A DNA stretch of 64,000 nt from a bacterium (GTDB lineage: Bacteria; Ratteibacteria; UBA8468; B48-G9; DTJG01): contig JAKPDB010000107.1 in assembly GCA_029552985.1 (NCBI GenBank), positions 15,170-79,169 on the forward strand, in the 5' to 3' direction. Shown here one piece after another: positions 20,718-39,386 of the stretch; the stretch's first letter is position 1, and each line of letters begins with the position of its first letter. The position numbers and the translations under genes are program-made. A model generated the notes under the pieces. The model was not told the DNA's origin. It was given only the letters and a program-made list of their open reading frames with translations, and did not search any database.

Positions 20718-20724
20718 GGAGACA

Positions 20725-21477: not shown

Positions 21478-21492
21478 AATCGTGAGGTTTGT

Positions 21493-21840
21493 ATGATAAC
21501 ACTGTTAATTGTTGTCCATTTGATTGTGTCAATCTTGCTGATTGTGGCGGTGCTTCTTCAGAGTGGAAAAGGTTCTTCAATGGCAAATGTTTTCGGCGGT
21601 GGAGGAATGGAAACCGTATTTGGTGCAGAAACGCCTGCAATTATGAATAGAATCACAACTGTGCTTGCCATTTTGTTCATGATCAATTGTATTTTGCTTA
21701 CTACTGTGTCTTTCAAGTACAGTGGTGGTTCAGTGATTCAACGTGAAGTGCAAAAGGGTTCGATACCTCAGTCAGAAGAACCACTGCGACAGGTTCCAAC
21801 AACACCTTCCACAAATGTGCCACCGGCACAGAATAAGTAG
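21493..21840 (+). CDS. secG: preprotein translocase subunit SecG
   Basis: LLQSGKG...GGG.....FG motif, two TM segments, classic position after tpiA. Confidence 0.85.
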   Translation: MITLLIVVHLIVSILLIVAVLLQSGKGSSMANVFGGGGMETVFGAETPAIMNRITTVLAILFMINCILLTTVSFKYSGGSVIQREVQKGSIPQSEEPLRQVPTTPSTNVPPAQNK

Positions 21841-23506
21841 ACTTTGTTTTTTGTTTTTCTTTATTTTTGTATGTGCTGGTACTCCGGCAGAAATAAAACC
21901 TGGCGGGTCAATTGTCATTTCGGCGTCTTCAATACCAAAGTCATTCAATCCTATAGTGGCAAAGGAAACAAGTACAACTTTTGTTACAGGATTTATTTTT
22001 GAAGGTTTAATTGCGACTGATGGGGTCAGTTTAAAGGTTAAGCCAAATCTTGCTAAATCCTGGGATGTTGATGCCACTGGTAAAATATGGACATTTCATT
22101 TGAGAAGGGATGTTTACTGGAATGACGGTGTTCAGTTTACTGCAAAAGATGTGGAGTTTACATTCAATCGCTTGATTTTTAATCCTGATATCCCAACCAG
22201 TAGCCGGGACGTTTTCACAATAAACAATCAGTCAATCAAAGTGAAGGCAATTGATCAATTCACAGTACAGTTTATCCTTCCAGATCGATTTGCTCCATTT
22301 CTCAGGTTAATGGGTCAGGAAATACTGCCTGAACATAAATATAAAAAAGATGTTGATGAAAAAAGATTTTCGTCTGCCATGGGTCTCAATTCAAAACCGC
22401 AGGATATTGTTGGAACAGGTCCTTTTATGCTTGAGGATTTTCGTCCCGGAGAATGGGTAATATTAACGAAGAACAAATTGTACTGGAAACATGATTTAAA
22501 TGGAAATCAGCAGCCCTACCTTGATAGGATCATTATTCTGACAATTCCCGATCAAAATATGGCATTGTTGAAGTTTAAGAAAGGTGAACTTGACATGATT
22601 TCATTAAGAGCACAGGATTATTTGTTGCTCAAAAAAGCAAATCTTTCAGGGGTGAAATTTTATAATGTGGGACCTTCATTAAGTTCAGAGTTTCTTGTTT
22701 TCAATCAAAATCTTGACAGTAACATTCCTGAATATAAAAAAGAATGGTTTAGAAATATAAACTTCAGAAGAGCTGTTGCCTGCGCGATTGACAGGCAAAC
22801 AATTATCAACAATATTTTTGCTGGTCTCGGATACCCACTTTATGGACCAGTAAATGAATCTGTTCAGGAGTTTTACAATCCCAGGATAAAAAAATTTCCA
22901 TATAACATTGACCAGGCAAAAAAATATTTGATGGAAGGAGGTTTCCAATTAAGAAGAGATGGTCTTCTCTATGATTCAAAAGGAAATCAGGTTTCTTTTT
23001 CCCTCATCACCAACAGTAATAATTCTGAAAGGATTGAGCAGGCAAATTTGATTAGAAATGACCTTGAAAAACTTGGCATGAAGGTGAATTTTCTTCCGGT
23101 TGATTTTAATTCTCTCGTTACAAGAATAAATGCAACGAAAGATTGGGAATCCGTCATTATTGGATTGACAGGTGGCATTGACCCCCATTTCGGAAAGAAT
23201 GTGTGGGTGACAACAGGGCATCTTCATTTATGGAATTTAGGTTCTCCAAGATCTGTTTATGAATGGGAAAAAGAGGTCGATAGAATTTTTGAAGACGCAG
23301 CAAGAGAAATGGACCAGAAAAAGCGAAAACTTCTTTATGACAGATGGCAGGAATTGATGTGTGAAAATCAGGTAATGATTTTCACTGCCACACAGGCAGT
23401 TTTATATGCAGTCAGGGACAAATTTGGTAATTTGAAACCCACAGTATACGGTGGCTTGTTCCATAATATAGAAGAAATCTACATAAAAAGCCGATGCCAG
23501 TATTGA
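21815..23506 (+). CDS. ABC transporter substrate-binding protein, family 5 (Opp/Dpp/Nik type)
   Basis: Signal peptide (MCHRHRISRLCFLFFFIFVCAG) followed by the SBP_bac_5 pattern (ILPDRFAPF, LDRIII..IPD). The start overlaps the 3' end of secG. An alternative TTG start is at 21851. Confidence 0.8.
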   Translation: MCHRHRISRLCFLFFFIFVCAGTPAEIKPGGSIVISASSIPKSFNPIVAKETSTTFVTGFIFEGLIATDGVSLKVKPNLAKSWDVDATGKIWTFHLRRDVYWNDGVQFTAKDVEFTFNRLIFNPDIPTSSRDVFTINNQSIKVKAIDQFTVQFILPDRFAPFLRLMGQEILPEHKYKKDVDEKRFSSAMGLNSKPQDIVGTGPFMLEDFRPGEWVILTKNKLYWKHDLNGNQQPYLDRIIILTIPDQNMALLKFKKGELDMISLRAQDYLLLKKANLSGVKFYNVGPSLSSEFLVFNQNLDSNIPEYKKEWFRNINFRRAVACAIDRQTIINNIFAGLGYPLYGPVNESVQEFYNPRIKKFPYNIDQAKKYLMEGGFQLRRDGLLYDSKGNQVSFSLITNSNNSERIEQANLIRNDLEKLGMKVNFLPVDFNSLVTRINATKDWESVIIGLTGGIDPHFGKNVWVTTGHLHLWNLGSPRSVYEWEKEVDRIFEDAAREMDQKKRKLLYDRWQELMCENQVMIFTATQAVLYAVRDKFGNLKPTVYGGLFHNIEEIYIKSRCQY

Positions 23507-24009
23507 GAATGATTTATGAAAGACAGGGTGTTGCCAGGTTCATATCTGTAAATTACATTGGGAAAATTTTTGAAAGAGCAGTGAGAAGATTACAGGTAAA
23601 CCTTGAATTTTCTTATGGATATAGCCGCAGAGTGAGAATCAGTCTTGGTCCGCCTGTTGCGGTTGGTATTTCTGGTGTTAACGAGGTTATTGATATACAT
23701 GTAAAAGATAGAAGTATTTCAGCTGATGTTATTAAAAACAGTTTGAATGAGGTTCTACCTGAGGGGTTGAAGATTACAGAATGTCGTTATCTCATAGATG
23801 GTGAAAAATCACCACCTGAAATTAAGAAAGCCCGGTATAGAATTAGACAATTTCCTGATAATATTGGTGATATGCCAGAATCATGGGATGTGATTAGTAA
23901 AAACTCAGACATGATTGAAATTGAGGTCTGGATTGAAAAATTCAAACACAGGGACCTGTTTGACATTTTCGGCACATCCTGCCAGATAGAAAGAAAATTG
24001 ATTTTTTGA
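23494..24009 (+). CDS. DUF2344 (TIGR03936, radical SAM-linked) family protein
   Basis: ERAVRRLQVNLEFSYGYSRRVRISLGPPVAVG and LNEVLPEGLKI match the remembered DUF2344 consensus. Confidence 0.55.
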   Translation: MPVLRMIYERQGVARFISVNYIGKIFERAVRRLQVNLEFSYGYSRRVRISLGPPVAVGISGVNEVIDIHVKDRSISADVIKNSLNEVLPEGLKITECRYLIDGEKSPPEIKKARYRIRQFPDNIGDMPESWDVISKNSDMIEIEVWIEKFKHRDLFDIFGTSCQIERKLIF

Positions 24010-24068
24010 GCAAATTCAGTATAATTTATTCGTGGGATTTCTTATTCCACGATAATCCAGGAGATATT

Positions 24069-24848
24069 ATGTCAATGAGGTTTTCAATTTCAAAGAGGCA
24101 TGGTTTTGAAAAAAAAATTGTCTCACCGAGAAATTCTGATCTTAAATTTCTTTCATTCAGTTATTTGTTTTCAATGTTTTCGCTCCAGTTTGAACAAAAT
24201 ACTGAAGATGAAGAATGGTTGTGGGTGATTATGTCAGGGAAAATCAATATTACAATAGGAGAAAGTTCCTTTTGTATGGAAAGAAAGGGAGTGTTCAATG
24301 ATAGACCAGTATCTCTATATATTCCTGCGGGTACAAAATATGTCGTGAAATCTGAGGGATTTTCAGAAGCAGTGGCGGTCTCCGCACCATCAGGGAAAAA
24401 TTTTTCTCCTGTATTTATTTCATCTGACGGCATAGAGGTTCAAAGGGCAGGAAAATTGAATTATCAGCGTTCAATTTTTAATATCATGCCTCAGGATTTT
24501 CCTGCTTCCAAAATTATAGCAGGCGAGACAATTCATGATACTGGTCACTGGTCCTGTTTTCCTCCACATAAGCACGATGAAGACAGGATGCCAGAAGAGA
24601 GCAAACATGAGGAACTATATTTTTTCAAATGCGAACCAGAAAAAACAGGCTTCGGACTGATGCGTGTTTACGATGATACACAGGATGTCGCATTTCCGAT
24701 TCTTCCCAATGATGTGATTACCATTCCAAAAGGTTATCATCCAGTAAGTGTGATACCCGGTCATAAACTTTATTATTTCTGGGCGCTTGCTGGTGAAAAA
24801 CGGCCATTTCAAAGACACACGCATCCTGATTATCTTAAGTATGAATAA
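24069..24848 (+). CDS. iolB: KduI/IolB family isomerase (5-deoxy-glucuronate isomerase-like)
   Basis: WSCFPPHKHDEDRMPEESKHEELYFF...RVYDD...IPKGYHPV closely matches B. subtilis IolB (PPHKHDQDNLPEES..EETYYH). SD CCAGGAGA lies before the ATG at 24069. Confidence 0.7.
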   Translation: MSMRFSISKRHGFEKKIVSPRNSDLKFLSFSYLFSMFSLQFEQNTEDEEWLWVIMSGKINITIGESSFCMERKGVFNDRPVSLYIPAGTKYVVKSEGFSEAVAVSAPSGKNFSPVFISSDGIEVQRAGKLNYQRSIFNIMPQDFPASKIIAGETIHDTGHWSCFPPHKHDEDRMPEESKHEELYFFKCEPEKTGFGLMRVYDDTQDVAFPILPNDVITIPKGYHPVSVIPGHKLYYFWALAGEKRPFQRHTHPDYLKYE

Positions 24849-24858
24849 AGGGGGATAT

Positions 24859-25686
24859 ATGAACAAGGAAATTATAGATTTATTCAGTCTTGATGGAATG
24901 AATGCGGTAGTAACAGGGGCAGCAGGAGTACTAGGATTCAGCATATGCGCAGGACTGGCAGGTGCAGGAGCATCCGTGGCCATCGCCGATATAAAAAATT
25001 TTAAAGAAGCAGCAGAGCAGTTGAAAAAAAAAGGTCTTGATGCAGAAGGGTTTTACATTGATGTACTGAAAAAAGACAAGATTATTGAGTGCGCAAAAGA
25101 GATTATGGAGAAATATAAAAAAATTGATATTCTCGTTAATTGCGCTGGGGGCAACTTAAAGGAAGCAACAACATCTCCTGAATTAAGTTTTTTTGATCTT
25201 CCTGTTGAGGGTCTGGAACGGGTTGTGGCTTTGAATCTTTTTGGAGGAGCGATACTACCATCTCAGGTATTTGGCAGGGAAATGGTAAAAAACCCTGACG
25301 GTGGATCTATCATCAATATATCTTCCATGAATGCGTTCAGACCTCTTACGAGAATTCCTGGTTATTCTGCAGCAAAAGCAGCAGTGAGTAATTTTACTCA
25401 ATGGCTCGCAGTGCACTTTGCAATGGAATACAACAAATTGTTAAGAGTTAATGCAATAGCGCCTGGTTTTTTTCTTACTCAACAAAATCGGTATCTTCTG
25501 ATAGACGAAAACAATGATCTTACTCCAAGAGGCAAGACAATTATCAATCACACTCCAATGGGAAGATTTGGTGAGCCAGATGATTTAATAGGAAGTTGTA
25601 TATGGCTTGCATCAAGAGCATCAAAGTTTGTGACAGGCGTTGTAATTCCTGTCGATGGCGGCTTTAATGCATATTCGGGTGTTTAA
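24859..25686 (+). CDS. SDR family oxidoreductase (KduD/mannonate-type sugar-acid dehydrogenase-like)
   Basis: TGAAGVLG Rossmann motif, NCAGG, and the YSAAK catalytic motif. Confidence 0.8.
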   Translation: MNKEIIDLFSLDGMNAVVTGAAGVLGFSICAGLAGAGASVAIADIKNFKEAAEQLKKKGLDAEGFYIDVLKKDKIIECAKEIMEKYKKIDILVNCAGGNLKEATTSPELSFFDLPVEGLERVVALNLFGGAILPSQVFGREMVKNPDGGSIINISSMNAFRPLTRIPGYSAAKAAVSNFTQWLAVHFAMEYNKLLRVNAIAPGFFLTQQNRYLLIDENNDLTPRGKTIINHTPMGRFGEPDDLIGSCIWLASRASKFVTGVVIPVDGGFNAYSGV

Positions 25687-25709
25687 TTTTTACCAAAAAG
25701 GAGCAGAAA

Positions 25710-27197
25710 ATGAAAAAAGCAAATATTGCGATAATTGGAATGGAAGTTATGGGAAGAAGCCTTGCCCTCAATATGGAAAGCAAAAACTATACTGTGGCAG
25801 TTTATAACAGAACAGCAGAAAAAACAAAAGCGTTTGTTGAAGGTCCTGCCAGGGGGAAAAATATTATTCCTACCTATGAGTTAAAAGATCTGGTTGATTC
25901 TCTGGAAAGTCCGAAAAAGATTATGTTGATGGTAAAAGAGGGCCAGCCGGTGGACAATTTTATAGAAATGCTTCTTCCCTATCTGAAGCCTGGAGACCTT
26001 ATTATCGATGGAGGCAATTCATTCTTTAAGGACACAATCAGAAGAAACAAAATGTTATCAGAAAAGGGAATTCTTTTTATTGGAACAGGCGTGTCAGGGG
26101 GAGAAGAAGGTGCATTGAAAGGGCCAGCCATTATGCCTGGAGGACAAAAGGAAGCATATCGACTTGTAGAGAAGATATTCAGGGATATTGCGGCAAAGGC
26201 ATACGACGGTGAGCCGTGCGTTGATTACATAGGTCCTGATGGAGCAGGGCACTTTGTGAAAACTATTCACAACGGAATTGAGTACGGCGATATGCAGTTG
26301 ATTGGTGAGGTTGTGTGGTTTTTTAAAAACATTGGAATGAAGGCAGATGAAATTGCTGATATCATGGCAAAATGGAACGATAGGGACGACATTTTGAGAT
26401 CATACCTGATAGAAATTACTGCTGACAGTATGAAACAAAAACATCAGGGTTCTGACGAATTTCTTGTTGACAGGGTCGCGGATATTACGAGAATGAAAGG
26501 GACTGGCACCTGGACTGTCCAGAGTGCGCTGGAACTATTGGTGCCGATTCCAACAATTGCTGCAGCAGTATTTTCAAGAGAGATGTCTCAGGATAAACAG
26601 TTGCGCCTTGCAATGGCAAAGAAACTAACGATCGCGTCCGGCAAATTCAATGGTGACAAAAAAGAAATTATTGAAATAGCTCACGATGCACTATACATAG
26701 CCAAGATTTCATCATATGCCCAGGGAATTGCTTTGCTTCAGGCTGCTTCAAAAGAGTACAATTTTCACCTGAATATTGGTAGAATTGCAAAAATATGGCG
26801 TGCAGGATGCATCATCAGGGCTCAATTTCTTGATGAAATTACTAAAGCGTATGAATCTGACCCAGACCTTCCAAATCTTCTTGCTGCACCAAAATTTGCC
26901 AGTTTCGTTGAATCTAACACCTGGAAGCTTGCAAAGTTCATTGATGTTGCTCATCAATGCGGAGTGCCTGTTCTGGCTATGTCTGGTGCGCTTGATTACA
27001 TAATGCAGATTACATCGCCTGTGATGCCATCTGCTCAGGTTTCTGCTCTTCAAAGAGATTACTTTGGAGCCCATGGTTATTTCAAAATTGGCGGACCAAA
27101 AGACCCTGAACTTGTTGTAAATGAAGAAGGAAAGGTGCGTGAATTCCATACTGAATGGTTACTTCCAGGAAGACCAGAAAGAGAAATCACAAAGTAA
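25710..27197 (+). CDS. gnd: 6-phosphogluconate dehydrogenase (decarboxylating)
   Basis: IGMEVMGRSLALN, the 495-aa length and a C-terminal 6PGD domain. Confidence 0.9.
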   Translation: MKKANIAIIGMEVMGRSLALNMESKNYTVAVYNRTAEKTKAFVEGPARGKNIIPTYELKDLVDSLESPKKIMLMVKEGQPVDNFIEMLLPYLKPGDLIIDGGNSFFKDTIRRNKMLSEKGILFIGTGVSGGEEGALKGPAIMPGGQKEAYRLVEKIFRDIAAKAYDGEPCVDYIGPDGAGHFVKTIHNGIEYGDMQLIGEVVWFFKNIGMKADEIADIMAKWNDRDDILRSYLIEITADSMKQKHQGSDEFLVDRVADITRMKGTGTWTVQSALELLVPIPTIAAAVFSREMSQDKQLRLAMAKKLTIASGKFNGDKKEIIEIAHDALYIAKISSYAQGIALLQAASKEYNFHLNIGRIAKIWRAGCIIRAQFLDEITKAYESDPDLPNLLAAPKFASFVESNTWKLAKFIDVAHQCGVPVLAMSGALDYIMQITSPVMPSAQVSALQRDYFGAHGYFKIGGPKDPELVVNEEGKVREFHTEWLLPGRPEREITK

Positions 27198-27244
27198 TTG
27201 AGAAACGAAAAAGGTCTTAGTGGTTCGGAGGCAATTTACTGGTT

Positions 27245-28297
27245 GTGTCTTTGTATATGTTTGAAAAATTAGCAAAACAGAAATTACAGGAAACTCCGCA
27301 AGAATATTTGAAAACGTTCGAAAGAACTAAAGATTTTCTTGTGGCAATTGATACGGATGGATGCATTGCCGACAATATGAATGCTAAACAGATATTGATA
27401 TTCCACCCGTTATACATGGAATTCTATCAGCTGTGGGAAATTGAGTCCTACTTCAGAGAGATTGCTGAATTTTATAATCTTTTTTCTGTTCACAGGGGTT
27501 GCAATAGATTTCTTGCTATCAGGTACACATTAAATGCTTTGCACAGTCGTCAGGATGTTCGAAATGAAGTAAAAAAACTAAATGTAACTCTACCAGAAAT
27601 TAAGCCAGTTGAGCAATACATTGAATTTTGTAGAAAGAATAACTACGGCATGGGAAATGTTTCTCTGGACCAATTTCTGTCAACGCGAGTTTTTGATTCT
27701 GGACTTTATAAACTATCAGGGTGGAGTCAGGCGGTTAATAAAGCACTTGAGTATATCGTTGATAAAGTTCAACCTTTTGAGAATGTGAGGGAGTGTCTTG
27801 AAATAATTTACAAGCACGCGGACATTGCTGTGATTTCTCAAACTCCTTATGAAGATTTATTTAATTACTGGAATACACATGGTCTTTTGAAATATGTAAA
27901 AGTGATTTGCGGTCAGGAGATGGGAAGCAAAACGTATCATATAGAGATGTTGAAAAAGGTTGGCAAATATTCTGATGAGGCGGTACTAATGGTTGGTGAT
28001 GCTATCGGGGATTTTGAGGCAGTTAAGAAAAATAACGGACTTTTCTATCCTGTTGTTCCTGGGAATGAAAACGATTCCTGGAAAAAATTTCCAGAGGTGT
28101 TTGAATTGTTTTTGACGGGTAAGTATCATGGGGAATTAGAGCAATACTTGATTGGTGAATTTTCAAAAAAATTACCTGATAGGCCACCGTGGCAAACACA
28201 GGGTTATGATCATACCGCTTCTTACAGAAAAAATCAGGAAATCAGGAAATCTCTTTATAAACAATTTAATCCTGACGGGAGGTTACTCATTTTATGA
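27245..28297 (+). CDS. HAD superfamily hydrolase (putative phosphatase) with a large cap domain
   Basis: Motif I VAIDTDGCI and motif IV MVGDAIGDFEA. The GTG start is 14 nt after GGAGG; an alternative ATG is at 27257. Confidence 0.6.
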   Translation: MSLYMFEKLAKQKLQETPQEYLKTFERTKDFLVAIDTDGCIADNMNAKQILIFHPLYMEFYQLWEIESYFREIAEFYNLFSVHRGCNRFLAIRYTLNALHSRQDVRNEVKKLNVTLPEIKPVEQYIEFCRKNNYGMGNVSLDQFLSTRVFDSGLYKLSGWSQAVNKALEYIVDKVQPFENVRECLEIIYKHADIAVISQTPYEDLFNYWNTHGLLKYVKVICGQEMGSKTYHIEMLKKVGKYSDEAVLMVGDAIGDFEAVKKNNGLFYPVVPGNENDSWKKFPEVFELFLTGKYHGELEQYLIGEFSKKLPDRPPWQTQGYDHTASYRKNQEIRKSLYKQFNPDGRLLIL

Positions 28298-29580
28298 AAA
28301 TAGGAACAGGCAATAAGAATGAGGTTCTGTCTGAACAGAAATTTGGTTCTATTTTACAGAATATTGTGATATCTCTTGGTCTGGAGAAAAAGGAAAAGGT
28401 TCTGGTTATTATACCTGATAGTACTCGTTCAGGTCCAACAGGAGATGTTTTTAGAGTCATAGTTGATACTCTTTACCACAGGGTTAAAAAGCTGGATTTT
28501 ATGATCGCACTTGGAACTCATCCAGTAATGACAGTGGAAAACATTGAAAAATTGCTTGGAATTAACTGTCAGAAGTTCCAGGAGAAATATCCGCAGACGC
28601 AGATATTTCAACACTGCTGGGATGATGAAAAAACGATAGTGGAAATTGGTACCATTACAGCCAGCGAAATTTCGAGAATTTCTCGTGGGCTTTTAAACGA
28701 GGATATCCCTGTGACAATTAACAGAACCATACTTGATTATGACCACATTATTCTCGCAGGACCTGTTTTTCCTCACGAGGTTGTTGGGTTTTCTGGTGGA
28801 TATAAGTATCTTTTTCCTGGAATTTCAGGTCCTCATTTCCTTCACAAATTCCACTGGCTCGGCGCTTTAATTACAAATCCTAAGATCAATGGCGTGAAAG
28901 ATACTCCTGTCAGAGAAGCAATAAACAAAGCAGTTTCTTTTATAAATAAGCCAATCACACAGATATGTTATGTGGTAAAAGAAAAAAAGGTCTATGGAAT
29001 ATTCGCAGGAGACAATGAGGCATGGTCTGCAGCAGCAGATCTATCTGCGCAATTGAATATTGAATATGTCGACAGAAGTTATAACGAGGTTCTTTCAATG
29101 GCGCCAGTGATGTATGATGACATATGGACTGCCGGTAAATGTATGTATAAACTTGAACCGATTGTTTCTGATGGTGGAAATTTAATTATCTATGCTCCAC
29201 ATATCACAGAGGTTTCTTATACACACGGAAAGTACATCAGACAGGTTGGATATCATACGCGTGACTATTTTCTTAAACAATGGGAAAGATTTAAGAATTT
29301 TCCAGGCGGTATCCTTGCCCATTCCACTCATGTCAAGGGTATCGGCACTTTTCTTGATGGAATTGAAACTCCAAGAATCAACGTTTATCTTGCAACTGGC
29401 ATAAGTAAACAGGTGTGCCAGCAAATTAACCTCGGCTATATCAATCCAGATGAGATCAACATTGATGATTTTCGAAAGAAACAGGATACTTTTGTTGTGG
29501 AAAATGCAGGAGAGATACTATTCAGATTGAAAAGTGGCCAAGTTCCAGACATTGATAAACTTTATGAGAGGCGAAAATGA
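28294..29580 (+). CDS. LarA family (lactate racemase-like) nickel-pincer-nucleotide-dependent hydroxyacid racemase/epimerase homolog
   Basis: N-terminal DUF2088-like motifs IIPDSTRSGP and ALGTHP. The FPHEVVGFSGGYKYLFPG segment matches the LarA H..GxSGGxK cofactor-tethering region. 428 aa. Start overlaps the HAD stop (ATGA). Confidence 0.65.
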   Translation: MKIGTGNKNEVLSEQKFGSILQNIVISLGLEKKEKVLVIIPDSTRSGPTGDVFRVIVDTLYHRVKKLDFMIALGTHPVMTVENIEKLLGINCQKFQEKYPQTQIFQHCWDDEKTIVEIGTITASEISRISRGLLNEDIPVTINRTILDYDHIILAGPVFPHEVVGFSGGYKYLFPGISGPHFLHKFHWLGALITNPKINGVKDTPVREAINKAVSFINKPITQICYVVKEKKVYGIFAGDNEAWSAAADLSAQLNIEYVDRSYNEVLSMAPVMYDDIWTAGKCMYKLEPIVSDGGNLIIYAPHITEVSYTHGKYIRQVGYHTRDYFLKQWERFKNFPGGILAHSTHVKGIGTFLDGIETPRINVYLATGISKQVCQQINLGYINPDEINIDDFRKKQDTFVVENAGEILFRLKSGQVPDIDKLYERRK

Positions 29581-30947
29581 GTTATTTATTTAAAAAACAA
29601 TATCCAGATTTTAGACTTTTTGAAAGTTCCTTGAGAAAGCATGGTGACGATTATTACTTTGTTGCTGAAAAAAATGGAAGGATGTATCTGGTTATTGGAA
29701 ACAATTCCTTTCGGTTTATTGAACGAGAGGAATCACCTGAAATATTAAGAAAAACGTTTTCATTTCTCACCCCGGTCTGTGCAGGTATGAAAAATTCCTT
29801 TGGCTTTGGCGACCGGACAGGTTTTGCAACCCCAGGGCATATCCGTGCAGTAGAGGGAAGTGGGCTTTTCCCAATTTTTGCGCAGCAGTCAGCAAGGGAA
29901 CTCGAAAGAACAGGAAGGACATTCAAACAGGTTCTTGACGATGTAATTTTTTGGTGTTTTGCCTTTGGCTGGATAAATGGTTTTGGAGCGGATGCTGACC
30001 ATGCGAAAAATTTTGATGTTTTACAGGAAGCAATTTCTGCTGGCTACACATTTTTCACCATTGACCCCTCTGATAAAATCAGAAACCCATCAGACATTGC
30101 ATCGTGCAAAAAGCAAAGTATCGACAAATACATTAAGGAATATTCTGGTAAGAATTTCGCATGTAATGGATTTTCTTTTGTTTTCACTGAAGAAATGGTT
30201 TCTGAACTTGCTATTACATATGGGCAAGCTATTGATTTCATTGAGGAGTGTTATTTATTTATTTCTGACAGGAAAAAGAATTTTGATTTTGAGGTTTCTG
30301 TTGATGAAACAAAAGTCCCGACAACTGTTTATGCCCATGTATTTATTGTTATGGAGCTTCGCAGGAGAAATATTGAATTCAATAGCCTTGCTTTGCGTTT
30401 TTCCGGAAGATTTGAAAAGGGGATAGATTATATTGGAGATATTAATGAATTTGCCAGAGAACTGGAAATTCATAATAAAATACGGAATCATCTTGGACCA
30501 TATAAGATTTCACTCCATTCTGGAAGCGACAAATTCAGTATATATGGTGCGTTCAAAAAAACACTTGGAGACATGTTTCATGTCAAGACATCTGGGACTT
30601 CGTGGATTCAGGCGATGAAAACCATTGCAGCAATTGACAGGGAATTTTTTATGAAGTGTCTGGAAGTTGCGCTGAAGGACTTTGAAAAAAATTCAAGGTC
30701 CTATGAAATTTCCACAGATATTTCAAGGATAAATTTAGAAAAAATAAGGAACGAAAATCTTGATGAGATATTTTCCGATAATCATATCAGGCAGTTGATT
30801 CATATCAGTTATGGAAGTATTATTGGAAACGCTCCTGAGAGTCAGGAAATGAAACAACATTACAACATCCTGATTGAAAAAAATTGTGAGCTTTATTTTC
30901 GTTTTATTGAAGAACATTTGAAGAAACATGTTCAACTGCTTACATGA
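29577..30947 (+). CDS. GatZ/KbaZ-like TIM-barrel protein (candidate sugar-acid/sugar-phosphate epimerase, UxaE/tagatose-6P epimerase-like)
   Basis: Local resemblance to E. coli GatZ segments (GADADHAKN..AISAGYTFFTIDPS vs GGDHLGPN..YVAAGFSKIHLDAS; LHSGSDKF..HVKTSGTSW vs EAHSTDY..ILKVGPAL). Start overlaps the LarA stop (ATGA). Confidence 0.45.
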   Translation: MSYLFKKQYPDFRLFESSLRKHGDDYYFVAEKNGRMYLVIGNNSFRFIEREESPEILRKTFSFLTPVCAGMKNSFGFGDRTGFATPGHIRAVEGSGLFPIFAQQSARELERTGRTFKQVLDDVIFWCFAFGWINGFGADADHAKNFDVLQEAISAGYTFFTIDPSDKIRNPSDIASCKKQSIDKYIKEYSGKNFACNGFSFVFTEEMVSELAITYGQAIDFIEECYLFISDRKKNFDFEVSVDETKVPTTVYAHVFIVMELRRRNIEFNSLALRFSGRFEKGIDYIGDINEFARELEIHNKIRNHLGPYKISLHSGSDKFSIYGAFKKTLGDMFHVKTSGTSWIQAMKTIAAIDREFFMKCLEVALKDFEKNSRSYEISTDISRINLEKIRNENLDEIFSDNHIRQLIHISYGSIIGNAPESQEMKQHYNILIEKNCELYFRFIEEHLKKHVQLLT

Positions 30948-30957
30948 AAGGAGAAAT

Positions 30958-32880
30958 ATGAACAAAAAAAGATTTCCTTATAGCCAGTTGCCTGAAAGTG
31001 AAATTAAGAAACTTCAGGAATTCAGCAATCTCTGTCGAAGGGATGTGCTGACAATGACAACTCTTGCTGGTTCTGGGCATCCTGGTGGTTCAATGTCTGC
31101 TATGGAAATTTACAATGTTGTCTTCCATTATGCAGCAATCAGTCCTGATGCCCCAGATGATCCTGAGAGAGATAAAATTGTTGTCAGTTTTGGCCATACT
31201 TCTCCTGGTGTGTATGCTGTGTTAGGAAGGCTTGGTTTTTTTGACCTTGATACAGCCATTGCTTCCTTCAGACAGGCAGGTAGTATTTTTGAAGGGCACA
31301 TTGTGAGAAAAGTGCCAGGGGTTGAATGGGGCACAGGAAATCTGGGGCAGGGACTATCTGCGGGTTGTGGTTTTGCTCTGATTGATAAAATAAAAAATCG
31401 GGATACTTTTACCTTCGTGTTGATGAGTGATGGTGAACAGACAAAGGGTCAAGTGGGCGAGGCACGTCGTTTTGCAATCAAATACAAACTTAACAATCTC
31501 AGGGTTATTATTGATTATAACAGAATTCAAATCAGCGGCTGTATTTTTGATATCATGCCTAACAACATTAAGGAAAACTATCTTGCTGATGGATGGGAAG
31601 TAATGGAGACCGATGGTCATGACATATCCGACCTTTACGACACGATTAGAAGAAGTTTAGAAATTGATAAACCTGTTTGTATCATTGCCAGCACAGTTAT
31701 TGGAAAGGGTGTTTCTTTTATGGAAGGTAAATGTGCCTATCATGGAAAAGTTTTGAAGGAAGACGAGTACATGAAAGCCGTGGAAGAACTTGGTCTTTGT
31801 AGCGAACTTGAAAAATACAGAGAAATCAGAAAAAATAAAATGTATTCATTTCCAGACAGAACGTTCGATATTAAAATTTCAGCGCTTCAGGGCTCTATCC
31901 GGGTGTATCAGCCAGGTACAAAAATTGATAATCGCACAGCATTTGGAAACGCATTGCTTGACATTGGAATAGCCAATAAGGATAACAAAGACAATCCAGT
32001 AATTGTTTTTGATTGCGACCTTGCAAGTTCTGTTAAAACAGATTTATTTGCAAAACAATTTCCTGAAAGATTTTTTCAATGTGGTGTTCAGGAACATCAT
32101 GCAGCGACTGTAGCAGGGGCTGCTTCTGTTGATGGCGCCATCAGTTTTTTTGCTGATTTTGGGGTTTTTGGAGTGGATGAAACTTACAATCAGCACCGGT
32201 TGAATGACCAGAATTATACAAATTTGAAAATTGTGTGTACGCATCTTGGGCTTGATGTGGGAGAAGATGGAAAGACTCATCAGTGCATTGATTATGTGGG
32301 ACTATTCAGAAATGTTTTTGGAATAAGACTCATTATACCCGCAGATGCCAATCAAACCGATAGAGTAATCAGATATGTTGCCACTCATCCTGGAAATTAT
32401 TTTGTTGGAATGGGTCGTTCCTATACACCGATTATAACAACTTCTGATGGGAAACCATTTTTTGGAGAAAAATATCAATTCGAATACGGCAAGGCAGATA
32501 TTTTAAGAGATGGGAAACATGGATTTATTTATACTTTGGGAGCACTGGTGCCAAGAGCAGTTGCTATTTCTGACCGGCTCAGGCAGGATGGAGTTAGTAT
32601 TGGTGTTATCAATTGCTCATGCCCTGTTATAATTGATAGGGAAGCAATGGAATTGGGCATAAAAACTGGTTTGATCATATCATATGAAGACCATGTGGTT
32701 GATTCAGGGCTTGGTATGACAATTGCTGCATATATTGCTGAAAAACAAGTTAACGTGAAATTTCACAGGTTTGGTATTAGGAAATACGGTAGTTCAGGAA
32801 CACCTGATGAACTTTATGCTGAACATGGGCTTGACCCTGAAACAATGATATCTTTTATTAAAAGCATTATTAAAAAATAA
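30958..32880 (+). CDS. tkt: transketolase (single-chain, ~640 aa)
   Basis: GSGHPGGSMS TPP motif. SD AAAGGAGA precedes the ATG at 30958. Confidence 0.85.
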   Translation: MNKKRFPYSQLPESEIKKLQEFSNLCRRDVLTMTTLAGSGHPGGSMSAMEIYNVVFHYAAISPDAPDDPERDKIVVSFGHTSPGVYAVLGRLGFFDLDTAIASFRQAGSIFEGHIVRKVPGVEWGTGNLGQGLSAGCGFALIDKIKNRDTFTFVLMSDGEQTKGQVGEARRFAIKYKLNNLRVIIDYNRIQISGCIFDIMPNNIKENYLADGWEVMETDGHDISDLYDTIRRSLEIDKPVCIIASTVIGKGVSFMEGKCAYHGKVLKEDEYMKAVEELGLCSELEKYREIRKNKMYSFPDRTFDIKISALQGSIRVYQPGTKIDNRTAFGNALLDIGIANKDNKDNPVIVFDCDLASSVKTDLFAKQFPERFFQCGVQEHHAATVAGAASVDGAISFFADFGVFGVDETYNQHRLNDQNYTNLKIVCTHLGLDVGEDGKTHQCIDYVGLFRNVFGIRLIIPADANQTDRVIRYVATHPGNYFVGMGRSYTPIITTSDGKPFFGEKYQFEYGKADILRDGKHGFIYTLGALVPRAVAISDRLRQDGVSIGVINCSCPVIIDREAMELGIKTGLIISYEDHVVDSGLGMTIAAYIAEKQVNVKFHRFGIRKYGSSGTPDELYAEHGLDPETMISFIKSIIKK

Positions 32881-32893
32881 ACAGGAGGTTCAA

Positions 32894-33094
32894 ATGAAAT
32901 GTAATAGAGACACTAATCTAAAACATTGTACCTGCACATATGTTTCATGCAGTAAACGTGGTATGTGCTGTGAATGCGTTGCCTATCACAGAGACAGTGG
33001 TGAAATTCCGGGTTGCTTTTTTCCGCCTGAAGCAGAAAAAAGTTATGATAGGTCAATCAAAAATTTTATCAATGTGTGGAACAAAAAAGTGTAG
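32894..33094 (+). CDS. small Cys-rich protein (C-x-C...C..C-C-E-C)
   Basis: 66 aa with 8 Cys (CTCTYVSCSKRGMCCECVAYHR...GCFFP). A strong AGGAGG SD is present. Confidence 0.4.
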   Translation: MKCNRDTNLKHCTCTYVSCSKRGMCCECVAYHRDSGEIPGCFFPPEAEKSYDRSIKNFINVWNKKV

Positions 33095-33100
33095 GCATTG

Positions 33101-34027
33101 CTAATACCATAGCCAGAGGTACTTCCATCGTTTGCTGTAGAATGTCGCGACATCTGGTTTTCTTATGATAATCAGTGTTTCGATATTTTTTCTTGCTGAT
33201 TCTGTGTAATTAAACGAGCCAGTTAACACAATTTTTTCATCAATGATCGTGAACTTATCATGAATGTTTTCCACGAAACAATCTTTTTTTATATGGAAAA
33301 AGTGAAATCGTTTTAAAAATTCATATTCGTTTGATGCTGGATTTTGAGAATTCTCAAAAATTCCATAAATTTGTACCCCTTTCAGTCCCACTTTGCAAAT
33401 CTCTTCTGCAATTGAATCAGAGGTAAATGAAAACATTGCGAATTTTATATTTTTTTCTGCCTTGCCTATTTCATTTCTTATAATTTGAGCGCAATCAGTG
33501 GTAGGGGAAAAATATATTTCAACAACCTGATCCTTATAAGTGTTGCAATCCATTGAACCACTCCACAAAAGCAAAAAATTTTTCGCAAAAAACTTTCCTA
33601 TATTTCCATCGTTAAAAAATACGATATTATTTGAGTCCCACATCAGGGAGGATTCAGTAAAATTGGCAGAACCCACAAATACATATCTTTCATCAATGAC
33701 AATGAACTTTGCGTGTAAATGGCAGGATTTTTTATCCCACTGTTTTATTTTTGTTTGAGTAATCTTAATGGAAACATTTTCCTGTGGAAACTGCAGCAGT
33801 ATTTTGACATCAATTCCTTTTCTGGAAAGTTTTTCAAGAGTTTCAAAACCATCACTCCAGCCGAATGTATAAGTTGCGATATAAACTGATTTTTTCGCCT
33901 GCAGCAACCTATTTATGATTAATCTATCAACTTTCTGGCAAGGAGAAAAATACACTTTGATATCTGAACAATAGACAATGGATTGAAGTAGCAACAGGGG
34001 AATGAAAAATTGACGAAACTTTTTCAT
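33101..34027 (-). CDS. secreted phospholipase D/nuclease family protein with two HKD motifs
   Basis: Signal peptide, then HAKFIVID..GSANFT and HDKFTIID..GSFNYT HxK(x)4D motifs. Confidence 0.75.
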   Translation of the reverse strand: MKKFRQFFIPLLLLQSIVYCSDIKVYFSPCQKVDRLIINRLLQAKKSVYIATYTFGWSDGFETLEKLSRKGIDVKILLQFPQENVSIKITQTKIKQWDKKSCHLHAKFIVIDERYVFVGSANFTESSLMWDSNNIVFFNDGNIGKFFAKNFLLLWSGSMDCNTYKDQVVEIYFSPTTDCAQIIRNEIGKAEKNIKFAMFSFTSDSIAEEICKVGLKGVQIYGIFENSQNPASNEYEFLKRFHFFHIKKDCFVENIHDKFTIIDEKIVLTGSFNYTESARKNIETLIIIRKPDVATFYSKRWKYLWLWY

Positions 34028-34105
34028 AAAGAAATTTTAATGTTTTCATAACAATTTTTCAATACGTACAATTTTCATAAATTGGCAAATTGAAGTAAAA
34101 TAATA

Positions 34106-35182
34106 ATGAAAATTACTAAAAAGGAGGAGATTTTGAGAGCCGCTATTTTCCATGGTCCAGAAAAAATTTCTGTAGAGAACTGGAAATTACCAGTGTGTGC
34201 AGACGACGAGATTTTGATAAAAGTGAATTATTGTGCGATATGCGGTACAGATGTTAGAACCTTTTTCCATGGACATAAGAAAGTGATTCCTCCTGCTATT
34301 ATCGGGCATGAAATAACAGGAGAAATTGTTGAAATCGGAAAAGAGGTAAAAACAAACCTGAAAGTTGGTGATAGAATCACGCCTGTTACTTCTATTGGTT
34401 GCGGTGTCTGTCGACTATGTCAGAAAGGACTTTATAATCTATGTCCTGATACAAAGGCGCTTGGATATTACTGGGCTGGAGGATTTGCTGAGTACATGAT
34501 TATTCCAGGACCTGCTGTAAAACAAAATGCCTGGGTACTTTTACCTGAAAATGTTTCTTTGCTTGAGGGGGCTCTCATTGAACCTCTTTCTTGTGTCATC
34601 AATGCTCAAAATTACTTAAACATACAGGATGGAGATACAGTTGTGATTTATGGTGGAGGACCCATTGGATTTATGCACGCTGTTATGGCTCAGACATCAG
34701 GCGCAGAAAAACTTATTATGGTGGACCCTGCGTTTGATCGTCTTGAGAAATTTGCGAGGAATTTCGACAATATTATTCTGATAAATCCAAATACTGAAAA
34801 TACTGTTGCAAAAATAAAAGATATTACCAGAAATTTTGGTGCGGATGTGGTTATCACTGCATGTCCTGCAAAGCAGGCACAGATTGAGGCATTTTCTATT
34901 GCGGCACCGCACAGTAGAATCAGTTTCTTCGGCGGGCTTCCAAAAGATGATTCAATGATTACGATTGACAGCAATCTGATTCATTACCTGGAAATCTCAG
35001 TTTTTGGAGCATTTGCGTCAAATCGAAAAGATTATCAGAAAGCAGTGGATTTAATATCTTCAAGAAAAATAGATCCGTCAAAATTCATCACTGAAGTAAT
35101 TTCTCTTGAAGAGATTGAAAAGGGAATTCGTCTTGTGAAGAATGGCAGTGTATTAAAGGTTGTGGTGAAGATACAGGAGTAA
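34106..35182 (+). CDS. zinc-dependent alcohol dehydrogenase (sorbitol/threonine dehydrogenase-like MDR)
   Basis: CAICGTD...GHE Zn motifs and the GGGPIG NAD motif. The likely true start is the in-frame TTG at 34133, 5 nt after AAGGAGG. Confidence 0.85.
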   Translation: MKITKKEEILRAAIFHGPEKISVENWKLPVCADDEILIKVNYCAICGTDVRTFFHGHKKVIPPAIIGHEITGEIVEIGKEVKTNLKVGDRITPVTSIGCGVCRLCQKGLYNLCPDTKALGYYWAGGFAEYMIIPGPAVKQNAWVLLPENVSLLEGALIEPLSCVINAQNYLNIQDGDTVVIYGGGPIGFMHAVMAQTSGAEKLIMVDPAFDRLEKFARNFDNIILINPNTENTVAKIKDITRNFGADVVITACPAKQAQIEAFSIAAPHSRISFFGGLPKDDSMITIDSNLIHYLEISVFGAFASNRKDYQKAVDLISSRKIDPSKFITEVISLEEIEKGIRLVKNGSVLKVVVKIQE

Positions 35183-35185
35183 ATC

Positions 35186-35977
35186 ATGAAATCAGAGGTT
35201 TTGAAAGACAAAATTACAATTATCACAGGTGCAGGAAGAGGTCTTGGAGAGGCATTAAGTTATGGATTTGCACAAGAGGGTGCAATCATATGTCCATGGG
35301 ACATTGATGAAAACAATCTAAATAGGGTTGCAGAAGAATTGAAAAAACTTAACAGGCTTGGAAGAAAAGCAAAACTTGATATTACTGACGAACATCAGGT
35401 GAAAAAAGAAATTGAAGCGATTGAATCAGAATTCAGGAAAATTGATATTTTAATTGCTAATGCAGGTATTTTGAGGTCCTATGAAATCACAGATTTTCCA
35501 GAAGAGGATTGGAGGAAAATTATTGAGGTAAATCTCACAGGATATTTTATTTGTGCAAAGTATACTGCAAGGGTAATGAAGAAACAACGTAGTGGAGTGA
35601 TTATTCAAATTAACTCAAAGTCAGGAAAAAAAGGAAGCTACTGGAATTGCGCGTATGCGGCAAGCAAATTTGGCGGTATCGGGCTTACACAGAGCATTGC
35701 ACTTGATCTTGCACCGTTTAATATCAGAGTTAATGCGATATGCCCCGGGAATATTCTTGAAAGTCCTCTATGGCAGACAAGTTTGTTTCAGCAGTATGCA
35801 AAAAAATGGGGCATTTCCATAGAGGAGGTTAAGAAAAAATATATTGACCAGGTACCTCTCGGCAGGCCGTGCACATACAAGGATGTGATTAATGTGGCTG
35901 TTTTTCTTGCAAGCGATTATGCCAGTTACATGACAGGCCAGGCAATTAACGTGACCGGTGGTCAGGAAATGAGATGA
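35186..35977 (+). CDS. srlD: sorbitol-6-phosphate 2-dehydrogenase-like SDR
   Basis: IIQINSKSGKKGS, AAKFGGIGLTQSIALDL and ASYMTGQAINVTGGQEM closely match E. coli SrlD. Confidence 0.75.
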   Translation: MKSEVLKDKITIITGAGRGLGEALSYGFAQEGAIICPWDIDENNLNRVAEELKKLNRLGRKAKLDITDEHQVKKEIEAIESEFRKIDILIANAGILRSYEITDFPEEDWRKIIEVNLTGYFICAKYTARVMKKQRSGVIIQINSKSGKKGSYWNCAYAASKFGGIGLTQSIALDLAPFNIRVNAICPGNILESPLWQTSLFQQYAKKWGISIEEVKKKYIDQVPLGRPCTYKDVINVAVFLASDYASYMTGQAINVTGGQEMR

Positions 35978-37092
35978 AACCATCCAGGGATGAAATTTTC
36001 CTGAAAAAATGTCTTTCTCTTGCCAACAATGGCCTCGGACTGGTCAGTCCAAATCCAATGGTTGGTGCTGTTGTTGTTAAGGGAAATCATGTCGTTGGAC
36101 AGGGCTGGCATAGAGCGTATGGGCTGGCCCATGCAGAAGTGGAAGCACTAAAAATGGCAGGTTCAAAGGCAAAAAATGCTACCCTTTACGTAAATCTTGA
36201 ACCCTGTTGTCATTATGGAAAAACCCCTCCCTGCACTGATGCAATTATCAAAGCAGGTATAAAAAAGGTTGTTTTCTGTACCATTGATCCCAATCCTTTT
36301 GTAAACGGTAAGAGTGTTGGCATGTTAAGAAATCATGGTATTGAAGTAAGGCATGGATTACTGGAAAGACAAGCCATAGACTTAAACAAAGCCTATTTTA
36401 CATATATGAAAAAGAAAAGGCCTTTTATTGCCTTGAAGTGGGCTATGAGTATTGATGGCAAGATTGCCGATGCTTCTGGCAATTCGAAGTGGATTACATG
36501 TGATGACGCAAGAGCATTTAATAGAAATCTGAGATTTGAATACGATGCAATAATGACTGGGGTAGAAACTATTATCAAAGATAATCCTGAACTGAATTAT
36601 TCTGTTCCTTACGGAGGAAGAAAATCTCTTTTAAAAAACAAACGTTATTCAAAGATTATCCTTGATACATCCCTGAGATGTCCGCGTGATGCAAAAATTT
36701 TTTTAGAGACATCTAAAAAAGTGATCGTTTTTACAGGTAGAGGTACAAGGTCCTTGCAGACAGAATACCCGGAAAATGTTGAATTTGTTGAGGTTGATAA
36801 AAACTCTGCTGGATTTCTTGATATTCAGCAGGTAATTCAAAATTTGTATGAAAGGGGCATTGGTAAACTATTTGTTGAAGGAGGTACAAAGGTTTTAACT
36901 TCCTTTTATGATTGCGAGCTCTTTGATAAAATTTATGTTTTTATTGGAAGTAAAATTATTGGTGGGGATGCTGTATATCCGCCATTGAAGGGTAAAACCA
37001 TACCCCTGGGAATGTCTGGTCTTGAACTTAAAGAAATTATCAGGTTTTCAAACGATATATTGATTGTTCTGGAAAAATGTTCTCAGGAATAA
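35974..37092 (+). CDS. ribD: bifunctional diaminohydroxyphosphoribosylaminopyrimidine deaminase / 5-amino-6-(5-phosphoribosylamino)uracil reductase
   Basis: HAEVEAL and PCxxC deaminase motifs plus a C-terminal reductase domain. Confidence 0.9.
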   Translation: MKPSRDEIFLKKCLSLANNGLGLVSPNPMVGAVVVKGNHVVGQGWHRAYGLAHAEVEALKMAGSKAKNATLYVNLEPCCHYGKTPPCTDAIIKAGIKKVVFCTIDPNPFVNGKSVGMLRNHGIEVRHGLLERQAIDLNKAYFTYMKKKRPFIALKWAMSIDGKIADASGNSKWITCDDARAFNRNLRFEYDAIMTGVETIIKDNPELNYSVPYGGRKSLLKNKRYSKIILDTSLRCPRDAKIFLETSKKVIVFTGRGTRSLQTEYPENVEFVEVDKNSAGFLDIQQVIQNLYERGIGKLFVEGGTKVLTSFYDCELFDKIYVFIGSKIIGGDAVYPPLKGKTIPLGMSGLELKEIIRFSNDILIVLEKCSQE

Positions 37093-37700
37093 TTGAAGAA
37101 AAAGGCATCGTTGTTGAAAAGAAACCGATTGGGCAGACATCTATCATTGGCATCAGCGCTGTAAAAGTTTTTGATGATTTGCAACAGGGAGACAGTATCA
37201 GTGTGGATGGGGTATGTTTGACTGTTGAAAAAATTACTCAACATATATTTTATGCAACAATCTCCTATGAAACAATGAAGTTGACAACCCTCGGACAGAT
37301 TAGGATTGGAACAAGAGTCAACCTTGAACGTGCATTGAAATATGGTGATAGGGTAGGGGGACATTTTCTTTTAGGACATATTGATTTTACTGGTACACTT
37401 TCAGGAAAAAAAGATGAAAAAGACCATTATGTAATCAGGATACAGGTACCTGCTCCTTTTATAAAATACTTTGTTCGAAAATGTTCTGTGGGAATTGATG
37501 GAATTTCTCTTACTGTTGCAGATATTACGGGTAATCAAATTATTGTATGGTTAATTCCATATACAGTTGAGAATACCACAATTGGGGAGAAACGTGTGGG
37601 AGATAGGGTGAATGTAGAAACTGATGTTATTGTGAAATCTGCAATAGAAGGCAGAACATACAGGGAAAAACATGAAATCAACAAGGAAGCAATTTTTTGA
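37077..37700 (+). CDS. ribE: riboflavin synthase
   Basis: MFSGIIEE N-terminus and a duplicated lumazine-binding domain. Confidence 0.9.
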   Translation: MFSGIIEEKGIVVEKKPIGQTSIIGISAVKVFDDLQQGDSISVDGVCLTVEKITQHIFYATISYETMKLTTLGQIRIGTRVNLERALKYGDRVGGHFLLGHIDFTGTLSGKKDEKDHYVIRIQVPAPFIKYFVRKCSVGIDGISLTVADITGNQIIVWLIPYTVENTTIGEKRVGDRVNVETDVIVKSAIEGRTYREKHEINKEAIF

Positions 37701-38925: not shown

Positions 38926-39386
38926 GAATTTTAGAAGGACATCTTTCCGCAGAAGGAAAGCATTTTGGAATCGTGGTAAGCAGATTTAATGAATTTTTGA
39001 CGAAAAATCTTCTTGATGGTGCACTGGACTGTCTTAAAAGACACGGTGCATCAGACGAAAGTATTGATGTTGTCTGGGTACCAGGTTCATTTGAGATTGG
39101 TTTTGCGGCAAGAAAAATGGCTTCTTTGAAAAAGTATCACGCTCTGATATGTCTTGGAGTGATTATTCGTGGGGCAACGCCGCATTTTGAATATGTGGCA
39201 GGACAGGTTACAAGGATTTTAGGTCAAATTAATAGCGAGGGGATTGTTCCTGTCACTTATGGAATTATCATTGCAGACAGTCTTGAACAGGCAACAGAAA
39301 GAGTGGGGACAAAAATGGGAAATAAGGGCTGGAATGCCGCGCTTTCAGCCATTGAAATGGCAAACATTAATGATTTACTGAAATGA
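38922..39386 (+). CDS. ribH: 6,7-dimethyl-8-ribityllumazine synthase
   Basis: FGIVVSRFNEF and VPGSFEIG motifs. Start overlaps the ribBA stop (ATGA). Confidence 0.85.
   Translation: MRILEGHLSAEGKHFGIVVSRFNEFLTKNLLDGALDCLKRHGASDESIDVVWVPGSFEIGFAARKMASLKKYHALICLGVIIRGATPHFEYVAGQVTRILGQINSEGIVPVTYGIIIADSLEQATERVGTKMGNKGWNAALSAIEMANINDLLK

Follow-up and report, generated by a model that had tools for sequence, protein, structure and literature searches.

A UxaE-family epimerase gene overlaps a LarA homolog in a divergent, probable sugar-acid cluster of a Ratteibacteria genome

A route for sugar acids in Thermotoga maritima was proposed by Rodionova et al. in 2012. As two later papers recount it (PMC6978723, PMC7583248), UxaE turns tagaturonate into fructuronate, which a reductase converts to mannonate; GntE then yields gluconate, which passes to pentose phosphates by way of a kinase and Gnd, the decarboxylating 6-phosphogluconate dehydrogenase. 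The layout of the Thermotoga sp. KOL6 locus matches the proposed route (DctPQM-Gnd-GntR-UxaE-SDR-LarAH-FGGY gluconokinase, where LarAH stands for a LarA homolog). In Lactobacillus suebicus, the hybrid galacturonate isomerase-phosphoketolase pathway likewise employs UxaE and a fructuronate reductase, and feeds mannonate to 6-phosphogluconate and Gnd instead of 2-keto-3-deoxygluconate (PMC6978723). Here we describe a divergent version of this known and widespread hexuronate-to-6-phosphogluconate module in a 64,000-nucleotide stretch of a Ratteibacteria genome (assembly GCA_029552985.1, contig JAKPDB010000107.1, positions 15,170 to 79,169), called the window below. It is centred on a 456-aa protein of the UxaE family, encoded on the + strand at 29577..30947 by a gene that overlaps the gene of a LarA homolog. 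We think it likely that this UxaE belongs to a conserved cluster feeding sugar acids to the pentose phosphate pathway, in a manner similar to Thermotoga.

The open reading frame (ORF) starts with an ATG and is unbroken, and the limits given for it in an earlier note, made from the letters of the window alone, are exact to the base. Its product matches the Pfam family PF16257 (UxaE) with 465.5 bits (E 2.4e-139; gathering score 27.1 bits) over profile positions 58-475 of 475. Among PDB sequences, phmmer matches it to the tagaturonate/fructuronate epimerase from Thermotogota (9lhw/9lhu/9lhy, E 1.6e-110) and to the UxaE of Cohnella laeviribosi (6il9/6ila/6ilb, E ~7e-79, the best being 6.5e-79). 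An AlphaFold2 model built with 22 homologs (mean predicted local distance difference test score, pLDDT, 92.8; predicted template modelling score, pTM, 0.91) displays an N-terminal domain of four beta strands, then eight beta/alpha units and, at the C-terminus, a helical domain, and Foldseek superposes it on 9lhu, 9lhw, 6il9, 6ila and 6ilb with query-normalised template modelling scores (TMq) of 0.91-0.94 and an rmsd of 2.4-3.1 A. The suggestion made in the earlier note of a metal-dependent TIM barrel related to the tagaturonate/fructuronate epimerases of thermophiles is thus borne out by the family score, the PDB match and the structural comparison (TM 0.93). Because the PF16257 match begins at profile position 58, a truncation of the ORF was suspected. 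We rejected it: the alignment shows a complete N-terminus with a clade-specific deletion, the clade of the window protein (454-466 aa) lacking an insertion of about 24 residues in the N-terminal beta domain.

The catalytic residues are also in place. In Cohnella UxaE, Glu126 and Asp159 were proposed to run the retro-aldol/aldol epimerisation (PMC11194214), and E108 and D141-H142 of the window protein align to Glu126 and Asp159-His160, the last being the adjacent metal-ligand histidine. Across the 22 homologs, which span 40-87% identity, the invariant residues include E108, D141-H142, E239, D243-E244, H254, H314, D318-K319, H335 and K337, and the window protein retains 72 of the 72 family-invariant residues. 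It is thus a bona fide member of the UxaE family with a (beta/alpha)8-barrel, and is predicted to be a divalent-metal-dependent epimerase; full-length homology, three-part architecture and catalytic residues are common to it and to the known UxaE enzymes of T. maritima/petrophila, Cohnella (6IL9/6ILA/6ILB) and Thermotogota ('TsT4Ease', 9LHU/9LHW/9LHY). Family membership and gene context make tagaturonate/fructuronate the most likely substrate pair. An identical protein is already present at NCBI under the name 'tagaturonate epimerase family protein'; an 87%-identical relative comes from Candidatus Ratteibacteria, and further relatives are found in metagenome-assembled genomes (MAGs) of Omnitrophica and TA06. 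In our literature search, no paper tied UxaE to Omnitrophota, Ratteibacteria or Atribacterota, or listed the residues of its substrate pocket.

Is the protein also GatZ/KbaZ-like, as the headline of the earlier note had it? As a family assignment this fails. PF08013 (GatZ/KbaZ) does not match the window protein even at E<=10, BLASTP against E. coli GatZ (from MG1655) yields a best segment of 28 residues with an E-value of 0.049, and hhalign of the 22-sequence UxaE profile against the same protein gives a probability of 0.8% and an E-value of 0.068. Nor is a partner found: no class II aldolase (GatY/KbaY-type) and no tagatose/galactitol gene adjoins uxaE, and Pfam scans detected no class II aldolase in the 64-kb window. 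We therefore rejected this assignment. The 28-residue segment is the strand-helix-strand that follows the Asp-His motif, and is probably what was first noticed as a segment-level similarity to GatZ. This similarity is marginal in sequence, but a remote relationship at the level of the fold is supported: Foldseek aligns the model with E. coli GatZ 2fiq_C (E 8e-6, TMq 0.45) and with the S. meliloti GatZ homolog 3txv (E 2e-6, TMq 0.50), and many class II fructose-bisphosphate aldolases score at the level of the GatZ structures and no better (TMq 0.37-0.50 for the two groups together), far below the UxaE structures. To judge from the model, the UxaE-GatZ relationship appears real but remote, limited to the fold and common with class II aldolases. 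UxaE, GatZ/KbaZ and the class II aldolases are viewed as having a common Zn-dependent aldolase-like mechanism (PMC11194214, PMC11907403): GatZ/KbaZ and the class II fructose- and tagatose-bisphosphate aldolases resemble UxaE in their TIM barrel, in the Asp-His at the end of strand 3 and in a Zn-based retro-aldol/aldol logic. However, GatZ/KbaZ, which are fructose 6-phosphate/tagatose 6-phosphate (F6P/T6P) 4-epimerases, differ from the window UxaE by their phosphosugar substrates and their aldolase partner gene, and have no detectable sequence-family link to it.

The ATG of uxaE (29577-29579) overlaps the TGA (29578-29580) of the LarA-homolog gene, as displayed in GAGAGGCGAAAATGAGTT. The junction reads AAAATGA, with an overlap of 4 nt, and a GAGAGG Shine-Dalgarno-like element lies 5' of the ATG. 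Four related species-level genomes (L004, L011, L012 and L013), whose UxaE proteins are 64-67% identical to that of the window, have an identical AAAATGA. In remoter relatives the junction remains tight, the two genes being separated by 1 nt (L091) or overlapping by 14 nt (L092). The arrangement with LarAH directly 5' of UxaE and a stop/start overlap is confined to the super-clade of the window, where it is kept across UxaE identities of 48%-100%. The upstream HAD gene is coupled in translation to the LarA homolog, its stop overlapping the start at 28294 in a further ATGA, and the transketolase gene (tkt) begins 10 nt past the uxaE stop (AGGAG-ATG at 30958). The earlier note had read the stop/start overlap as coupling the two genes. 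The overlap is indeed visible in the sequence and recurs in relatives, and together with the GAGAGG element this conservation argues for tight co-transcription and coupling. A scan of 18000-34200 for promoters and terminators gave counts equal to those of shuffled sequence.

Along its whole length, the LarA homolog aligns with PDB entry 4NAR (E 4e-64), which is GntE2 of T. maritima. GntE2 was shown to be a 2-epimerase of D-gluconate and D-mannonate; it works on free mannonate, which as gluconate enters the pentose phosphate pathway (PMC7583248). Alignment to 4NAR and 5HUQ, with numbering checked against R41, K164 and H180 of GntE2 (PMC7583248), equates D42, R45, H76, H161, K171, H187 and K282 of the window protein with D72, R75, H108, H174, K184, H200 and K298 of LarA. 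The specificity signature of GntE, that is E, V, A and H at LarA positions 175, 176, 358 and 359 (PMC11770544), appears as H161-E162-V163 and A342-H343, the A-H pair being placed by way of the 4NAR alignment. From these residues, we predict a GntE-type, nickel-pincer-nucleotide-dependent hexonate 2-epimerase that interconverts D-mannonate and D-gluconate.

The genes from gap (18510) to tkt (32880) are all on the + strand and closely spaced, in the order gap, pgk, tpi, secG, SBP_bac_5, DUF2344, IolB-like cupin, SDR, gnd, HAD, LarAH, UxaE, tkt (Table 1). As in the Thermotoga module (TM0438-TM0443 type), UxaE, an SDR, a GntE-type LarAH and Gnd form one co-directional cluster. Identities to the Thermotoga sp. 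KOL6 proteins are 39% for UxaE, 33% for LarAH, 44% for Gnd and 34% for the SDR. The two clusters differ in several respects, however. In the window, LarAH stands 5' of UxaE with its 4-nt overlap; GntR, the TRAP transporter and the FGGY kinase are absent; and an IolB-like cupin, a HAD protein and a transketolase are added. The LarAH subtype is 'LAHSTH' in the window and 'AAHVIN' in Thermotoga. The SDR subtype differs as well: that of the window shares 67% identity with a Pseudothermotoga SDR, which is located between UxaE and LarAH and scores 358 bits against PRK08277. Gnd (Pfam domains 6PGD and NAD_binding_2) and Tkt both pass NCBIfam equivalog models, and tkt also lies 3' of UxaE in L004 and in L011-L014.

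In the pathway we favour, a hexuronate, or another source of tagaturonate, would be isomerised to a keto-uronate by the IolB-like cupin. UxaE would then convert D-tagaturonate to D-fructuronate by a retro-aldol/aldol reaction, as class II aldolases do, the SDR would reduce fructuronate to D-mannonate, and the nickel-pincer LarA homolog would epimerise D-mannonate at C2 to D-gluconate. After phosphorylation, Gnd would decarboxylate 6-phosphogluconate and transketolase would handle the pentose phosphates, the flux presumably running in this direction. The earlier note imagined UxaE and the LarA homolog as consecutive epimerases: both would indeed serve one pathway, but they would not be consecutive, since the fructuronate reductase acts between them.

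Table 1. Features of the window and of related loci discussed in the text
Feature	Position	Strand	Evidence or remark
ROK kinase	5085-6020		Pfam
1054-aa protein	15165-18329	-	weak GH106 (alpha-L-rhamnosidase) match, 54 bits
SBP_bac_5 solute-binding protein, then DUF2344	21851-24009	+	
IolB-like cupin (KduI/IolB family)	24069..24848	+	PF04962 208.5 bits; candidate uronate aldose-ketose isomerase
SDR, D-mannonate oxidoreductase (fructuronate reductase) type	24859..25686	+	PRK08277 344.6 bits, cutoff 281
Gnd, NADP-dependent decarboxylating 6-phosphogluconate dehydrogenase	25710..27197	+	PRK09287 596 bits, TIGR00873 568 bits, both over cutoff
HAD-superfamily protein, 346 aa	27257..28297	+	weak HAD_2 match (Pfam)
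LarA homolog, GntE type, 428 aa	28294..29580	+	Lar_N 87.6 bits (Pfam)
UxaE	29577..30947	+	PF16257 465.5 bits
Transketolase (tkt)	30958..32880	+	PRK05899.2-2 939 bits; gene calls in identical contigs agree
Two-domain PLD-like nuclease/phosphodiesterase	33101-34027	-	PLDc_2 132 bits, weak DrmC/NucT-like matches
Zn-dependent alcohol dehydrogenase, weakly IolM-like, and SDR	34106-35977		
Riboflavin operon ribD, ribE, ribBA, ribH	35974-39386	+	
Split FruK/LacC-like PfkB gene	40685-41263 and 41359-41703	-	114-aa N-terminal and 192-aa C-terminal ORFs, different frames
Opp/Dpp-type permeases/ATPases	45173-49005	-	
373-aa ORF	51547-52668	-	no Pfam match
tRNA	56332-56405		Rfam
PFK-family gene 5' of HAD (outside the window)	L007:7576-8898		
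PFK-family gene 5' of HAD (outside the window)	L008:7658-8977		
PFK-family gene 5' of HAD (outside the window)	L009:7677-9011		
PFK-family gene 5' of HAD (outside the window)	L091:6205-7518		
Galactokinase-like GHMP kinase, 501 aa (outside the window)	L091:3057-4562	+	holds the SDR position
Second GalK-like gene (outside the window)	L091:11418-12602	-	after UxaE

We surveyed 80 species-representative genomes with a UxaE homolog, counting neighbours within 10 kb. A LarA homolog is present at 28 of the 80 loci (and at 17 of the 40 flanked on each side by 5 kb or more), an SDR at 31, Gnd at 20 and UxaC at 21. Nearly all UxaE-linked LarA homologs carry the GntE motifs. The locus of a Deltaproteobacteria MAG (L054) has the order UxaC-UxaE-SDR-LarAH-GntK-Gnd, with a GntK over the TIGR01313 cutoff and a LarAH that is 50% identical to that of the window and of the same subtype; the position of GntK after LarAH points to free gluconate as the intermediate. 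In L091, where a galactokinase-like gene replaces the SDR and a second one follows UxaE, the content of the locus suggests further variation in sugar entry to the UxaE module.

A number of observations weigh against the proposed pathway. The window UxaE shares only 31-39% identity with UxaE enzymes that have been characterised or with close relatives of these. UxaE enzymes are promiscuous toward fructose and tagatose (PMC11907403). The cluster is embedded in housekeeping genes, with gap-pgk-tpi on its 5' side and tkt on its 3' side, so that an endogenous role instead of a catabolic one is possible. It contains no UxaC, transporter or regulator, and no UxaC homolog turned up in the rest of the 64-kb window or at any locus of the window clade. 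No FGGY or GntK homolog was found between 14 and 44 kb of the window and no gluconate kinase in the rest of it (Pfam). Pfam scans of the 64-kb window found none of larB, larC and larE, the genes for the nickel-pincer cofactor. Finally, the known pathway leaves the conserved HAD gene without a role.

The promiscuity of UxaE raises the question of whether the protein is instead a hexose or hexose-phosphate 4-epimerase (fructose/tagatose, F6P/T6P) working with a HAD phosphatase, in a scheme of phosphorylation, epimerisation and dephosphorylation. The fructose-to-tagatose side activity of UxaE enzymes (PMC11907403) is consistent with this, as are structures deposited as 'tagatose 4-epimerase' or 'tagose isomerase', the HAD protein nearby and the frameshifted FruK/LacC-like PfkB gene 10 kb 3'. 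However, known F6P/T6P epimerases are of the GatZ/KbaZ type (PF08013), which the window protein does not match, and the partners of UxaE across phyla, namely UxaC, a mannonate-oxidoreductase-type SDR, a GntE-type LarAH and Gnd, make sense only with uronate/hexonate substrates. We consider a hexose epimerase highly improbable, and the tagatose-6-phosphate epimerase that the earlier note entertained finds no support in the gene context.

The HAD protein is the sole element of the cluster that known schemes do not explain. Beyond its weak Pfam match, it has no NCBIfam match and no sequence relative in the PDB. The four HAD motifs (DTDGC, S194/T196, K225 and GDxxGD) are invariant, together with several cap arginines, and the AlphaFold2 model (pLDDT 89) has a generic resemblance to HAD-IA enzymes such as beta-phosphoglucomutase and phosphoglycolate phosphatase. 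The family is compact: about 305 matches of uniform length, 54-61% identical across about 6 phyla, come from MAGs of Omnitrophota, Ratteibacteria, Firestonebacteria, Aerophobetes, Atribacterota and Thermotogota, and in every context examined the gene lies within a Gnd/LarAH/(UxaE) cluster. It is usually located directly 3' of a gene of the phosphofructokinase (PFK) family (437-444 aa; Table 1), which passes the PRK14072 subfamily model of pyrophosphate-dependent PFK (PPi-PFK) at 350 bits and contains the motifs GGNDS/GGEDS (PPi-type GGxDS), PKTIDND and MGR.

Sugar-acid kinases avoid the HAD gene. Among 36 non-duplicate LarAH loci, a kinase homolog (FGGY, GntK or PfkB) occurs in 0 of the 12 with HAD and in 18 of the 24 without it (Fisher one-tailed ~1.5e-5, ignoring phylogeny). 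This mutual exclusion suggests that phosphorylation is provided, or its place taken, by the HAD protein, whether or not the PFK-like enzyme takes part. Beta-phosphoglucomutase offers a mechanistic precedent, as a HAD enzyme whose aspartate is phosphorylated by fructose-1,6-bisphosphate or acetyl phosphate (PMC7608592). It is possible that the HAD protein similarly acts as an aspartyl-phosphate phosphotransferase, which would phosphorylate gluconate or mannonate from either acetyl phosphate or fructose-1,6-bisphosphate, the latter being regenerated by PPi-PFK. Alternatively, the kinase could be the PFK-like enzyme by itself, with HAD as an unrelated phosphatase. A broader proposal, in which HAD replaces gluconate kinase non-orthologously in at least six phylum-level lineages while the IolB-like cupin replaces UxaC in the window clade, is speculative and in our view fairly unlikely. 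No PFK was found in the window itself, and Pfam scans outside the cluster detected only the ROK kinase and the frameshifted PfkB as kinases of this sort.

These data also bear on the order of the steps. With the same UxaE chemistry, the route could be phosphorylated earlier: LarAH would epimerise 6-phosphomannonate to 6-phosphogluconate, or HAD and a PPi-PFK-like enzyme would phosphorylate. Extracts of L. suebicus convert mannonate to 6-phosphomannonate and then to 6-phosphogluconate, by an epimerase whose gene is still unidentified (PMC6978723). The kinase thus acts first on mannonate in L. suebicus (PMC6978723), whereas the window encodes a GntE-type LarAH and has no kinase in the cluster. 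Such a phosphorylated route would accommodate the missing gluconate kinase, the distribution of kinases relative to HAD, and the PRK14072-type PPi-PFK-like gene found directly 5' of HAD in 7 of 12 loci. On the other hand, the window clade has no PFK-like gene in its cluster, the co-occurrence counts ignore phylogeny, L054 has GntK after a LarAH of the same subtype, and Thermotoga GntE2 uses free mannonate (PMC7583248). The last two points favour the unphosphorylated route, and we regard early phosphorylation as unlikely.

The step that precedes UxaE in our pathway depends on the cupin. An IolB-like cupin is present in every locus of the window clade, with TIGR04378 (IolB) scores of 186-205 bits for a cutoff of 205; the window copy obtains 186.6 bits with this model and 23 bits with the KduI model PRK00924. 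Its candidate starts are 24006, 24069 and 24075, and gene calls in identical contigs use 24069 or 24075. IolB performs the same aldose-ketose isomerisation on 5-deoxyglucuronate, which makes a role as uronate isomerase chemically plausible, and the cupin may replace UxaC as a non-orthologous uronate isomerase. A further possibility is that the cupin is a true 5-deoxyglucuronate isomerase or a KduI-type isomerase, and that tagaturonate, or a related 5-keto-hexonate, comes from inositol or unsaturated uronates. The score of the cupin just under the IolB equivalog cutoff is compatible with this origin, as are three Anaerolineales loci in which an IolB-like gene and a second SDR stand alongside UxaC, like a KduI/KduD pair, and the weakly IolM-like alcohol dehydrogenase and SDR found 3' of the cluster. 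The inositol catabolism of T. maritima reportedly ends in tagaturonate (Rodionova 2013). However, iolG, iolE, iolD, iolC, iolJ, kduD, kdgK and kdgA are all absent from the 64-kb window, and the downstream dehydrogenase pair is not kept in relatives. We find this origin very unlikely; it would leave the reaction assigned to the UxaE ORF unchanged.

Other genes of the window can be described briefly (Table 1). Just 5' of gap, the 1054-aa GH106-like protein may be a rhamnogalacturonan-related glycosidase near the cluster. The SBP_bac_5 gene and the following DUF2344 gene have no adjacent permease or ATPase genes; the pair is kept 5' of the cluster in relatives, where it is accompanied by RNase G. 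Opp/Dpp-type permeases and ATPases are encoded about 22 kb from SBP_bac_5, on the opposite strand. Between tkt and the dehydrogenase genes that follow, the PLD-like gene alone is on the minus strand, and it is not kept in relatives. The riboflavin operon directly follows the SDR gene of the dehydrogenase pair; at the gathering threshold, Rfam reports a single tRNA in the whole window and no FMN riboswitch. At the site of the split PfkB gene, the only product called in separate assemblies of this organism has 192 or 210 aa, and this agreement indicates a frameshift or pseudogene instead of a one-off sequencing error. Lastly, the 373-aa ORF lies between the genes for argininosuccinate synthase and a GNAT acetyltransferase.

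The cluster extends the UxaE/GntE/Gnd route, which was worked out in Thermotoga and whose GntE step is biochemically confirmed, to uncultured candidate phyla represented by Ratteibacteria- and Omnitrophota-like MAGs. To our knowledge, sugar-acid use has not been described in these phyla. If the HAD protein does supply the phosphorylation, it would represent a novel type of reaction for entering the pentose phosphate pathway, and if it does so by phosphotransfer, sugar acids would enter that pathway independently of ATP. The same question might bear on the enzymes of the L. suebicus pathway that await identification, and would be of interest for the engineering of redox-neutral galacturonate fermentation.

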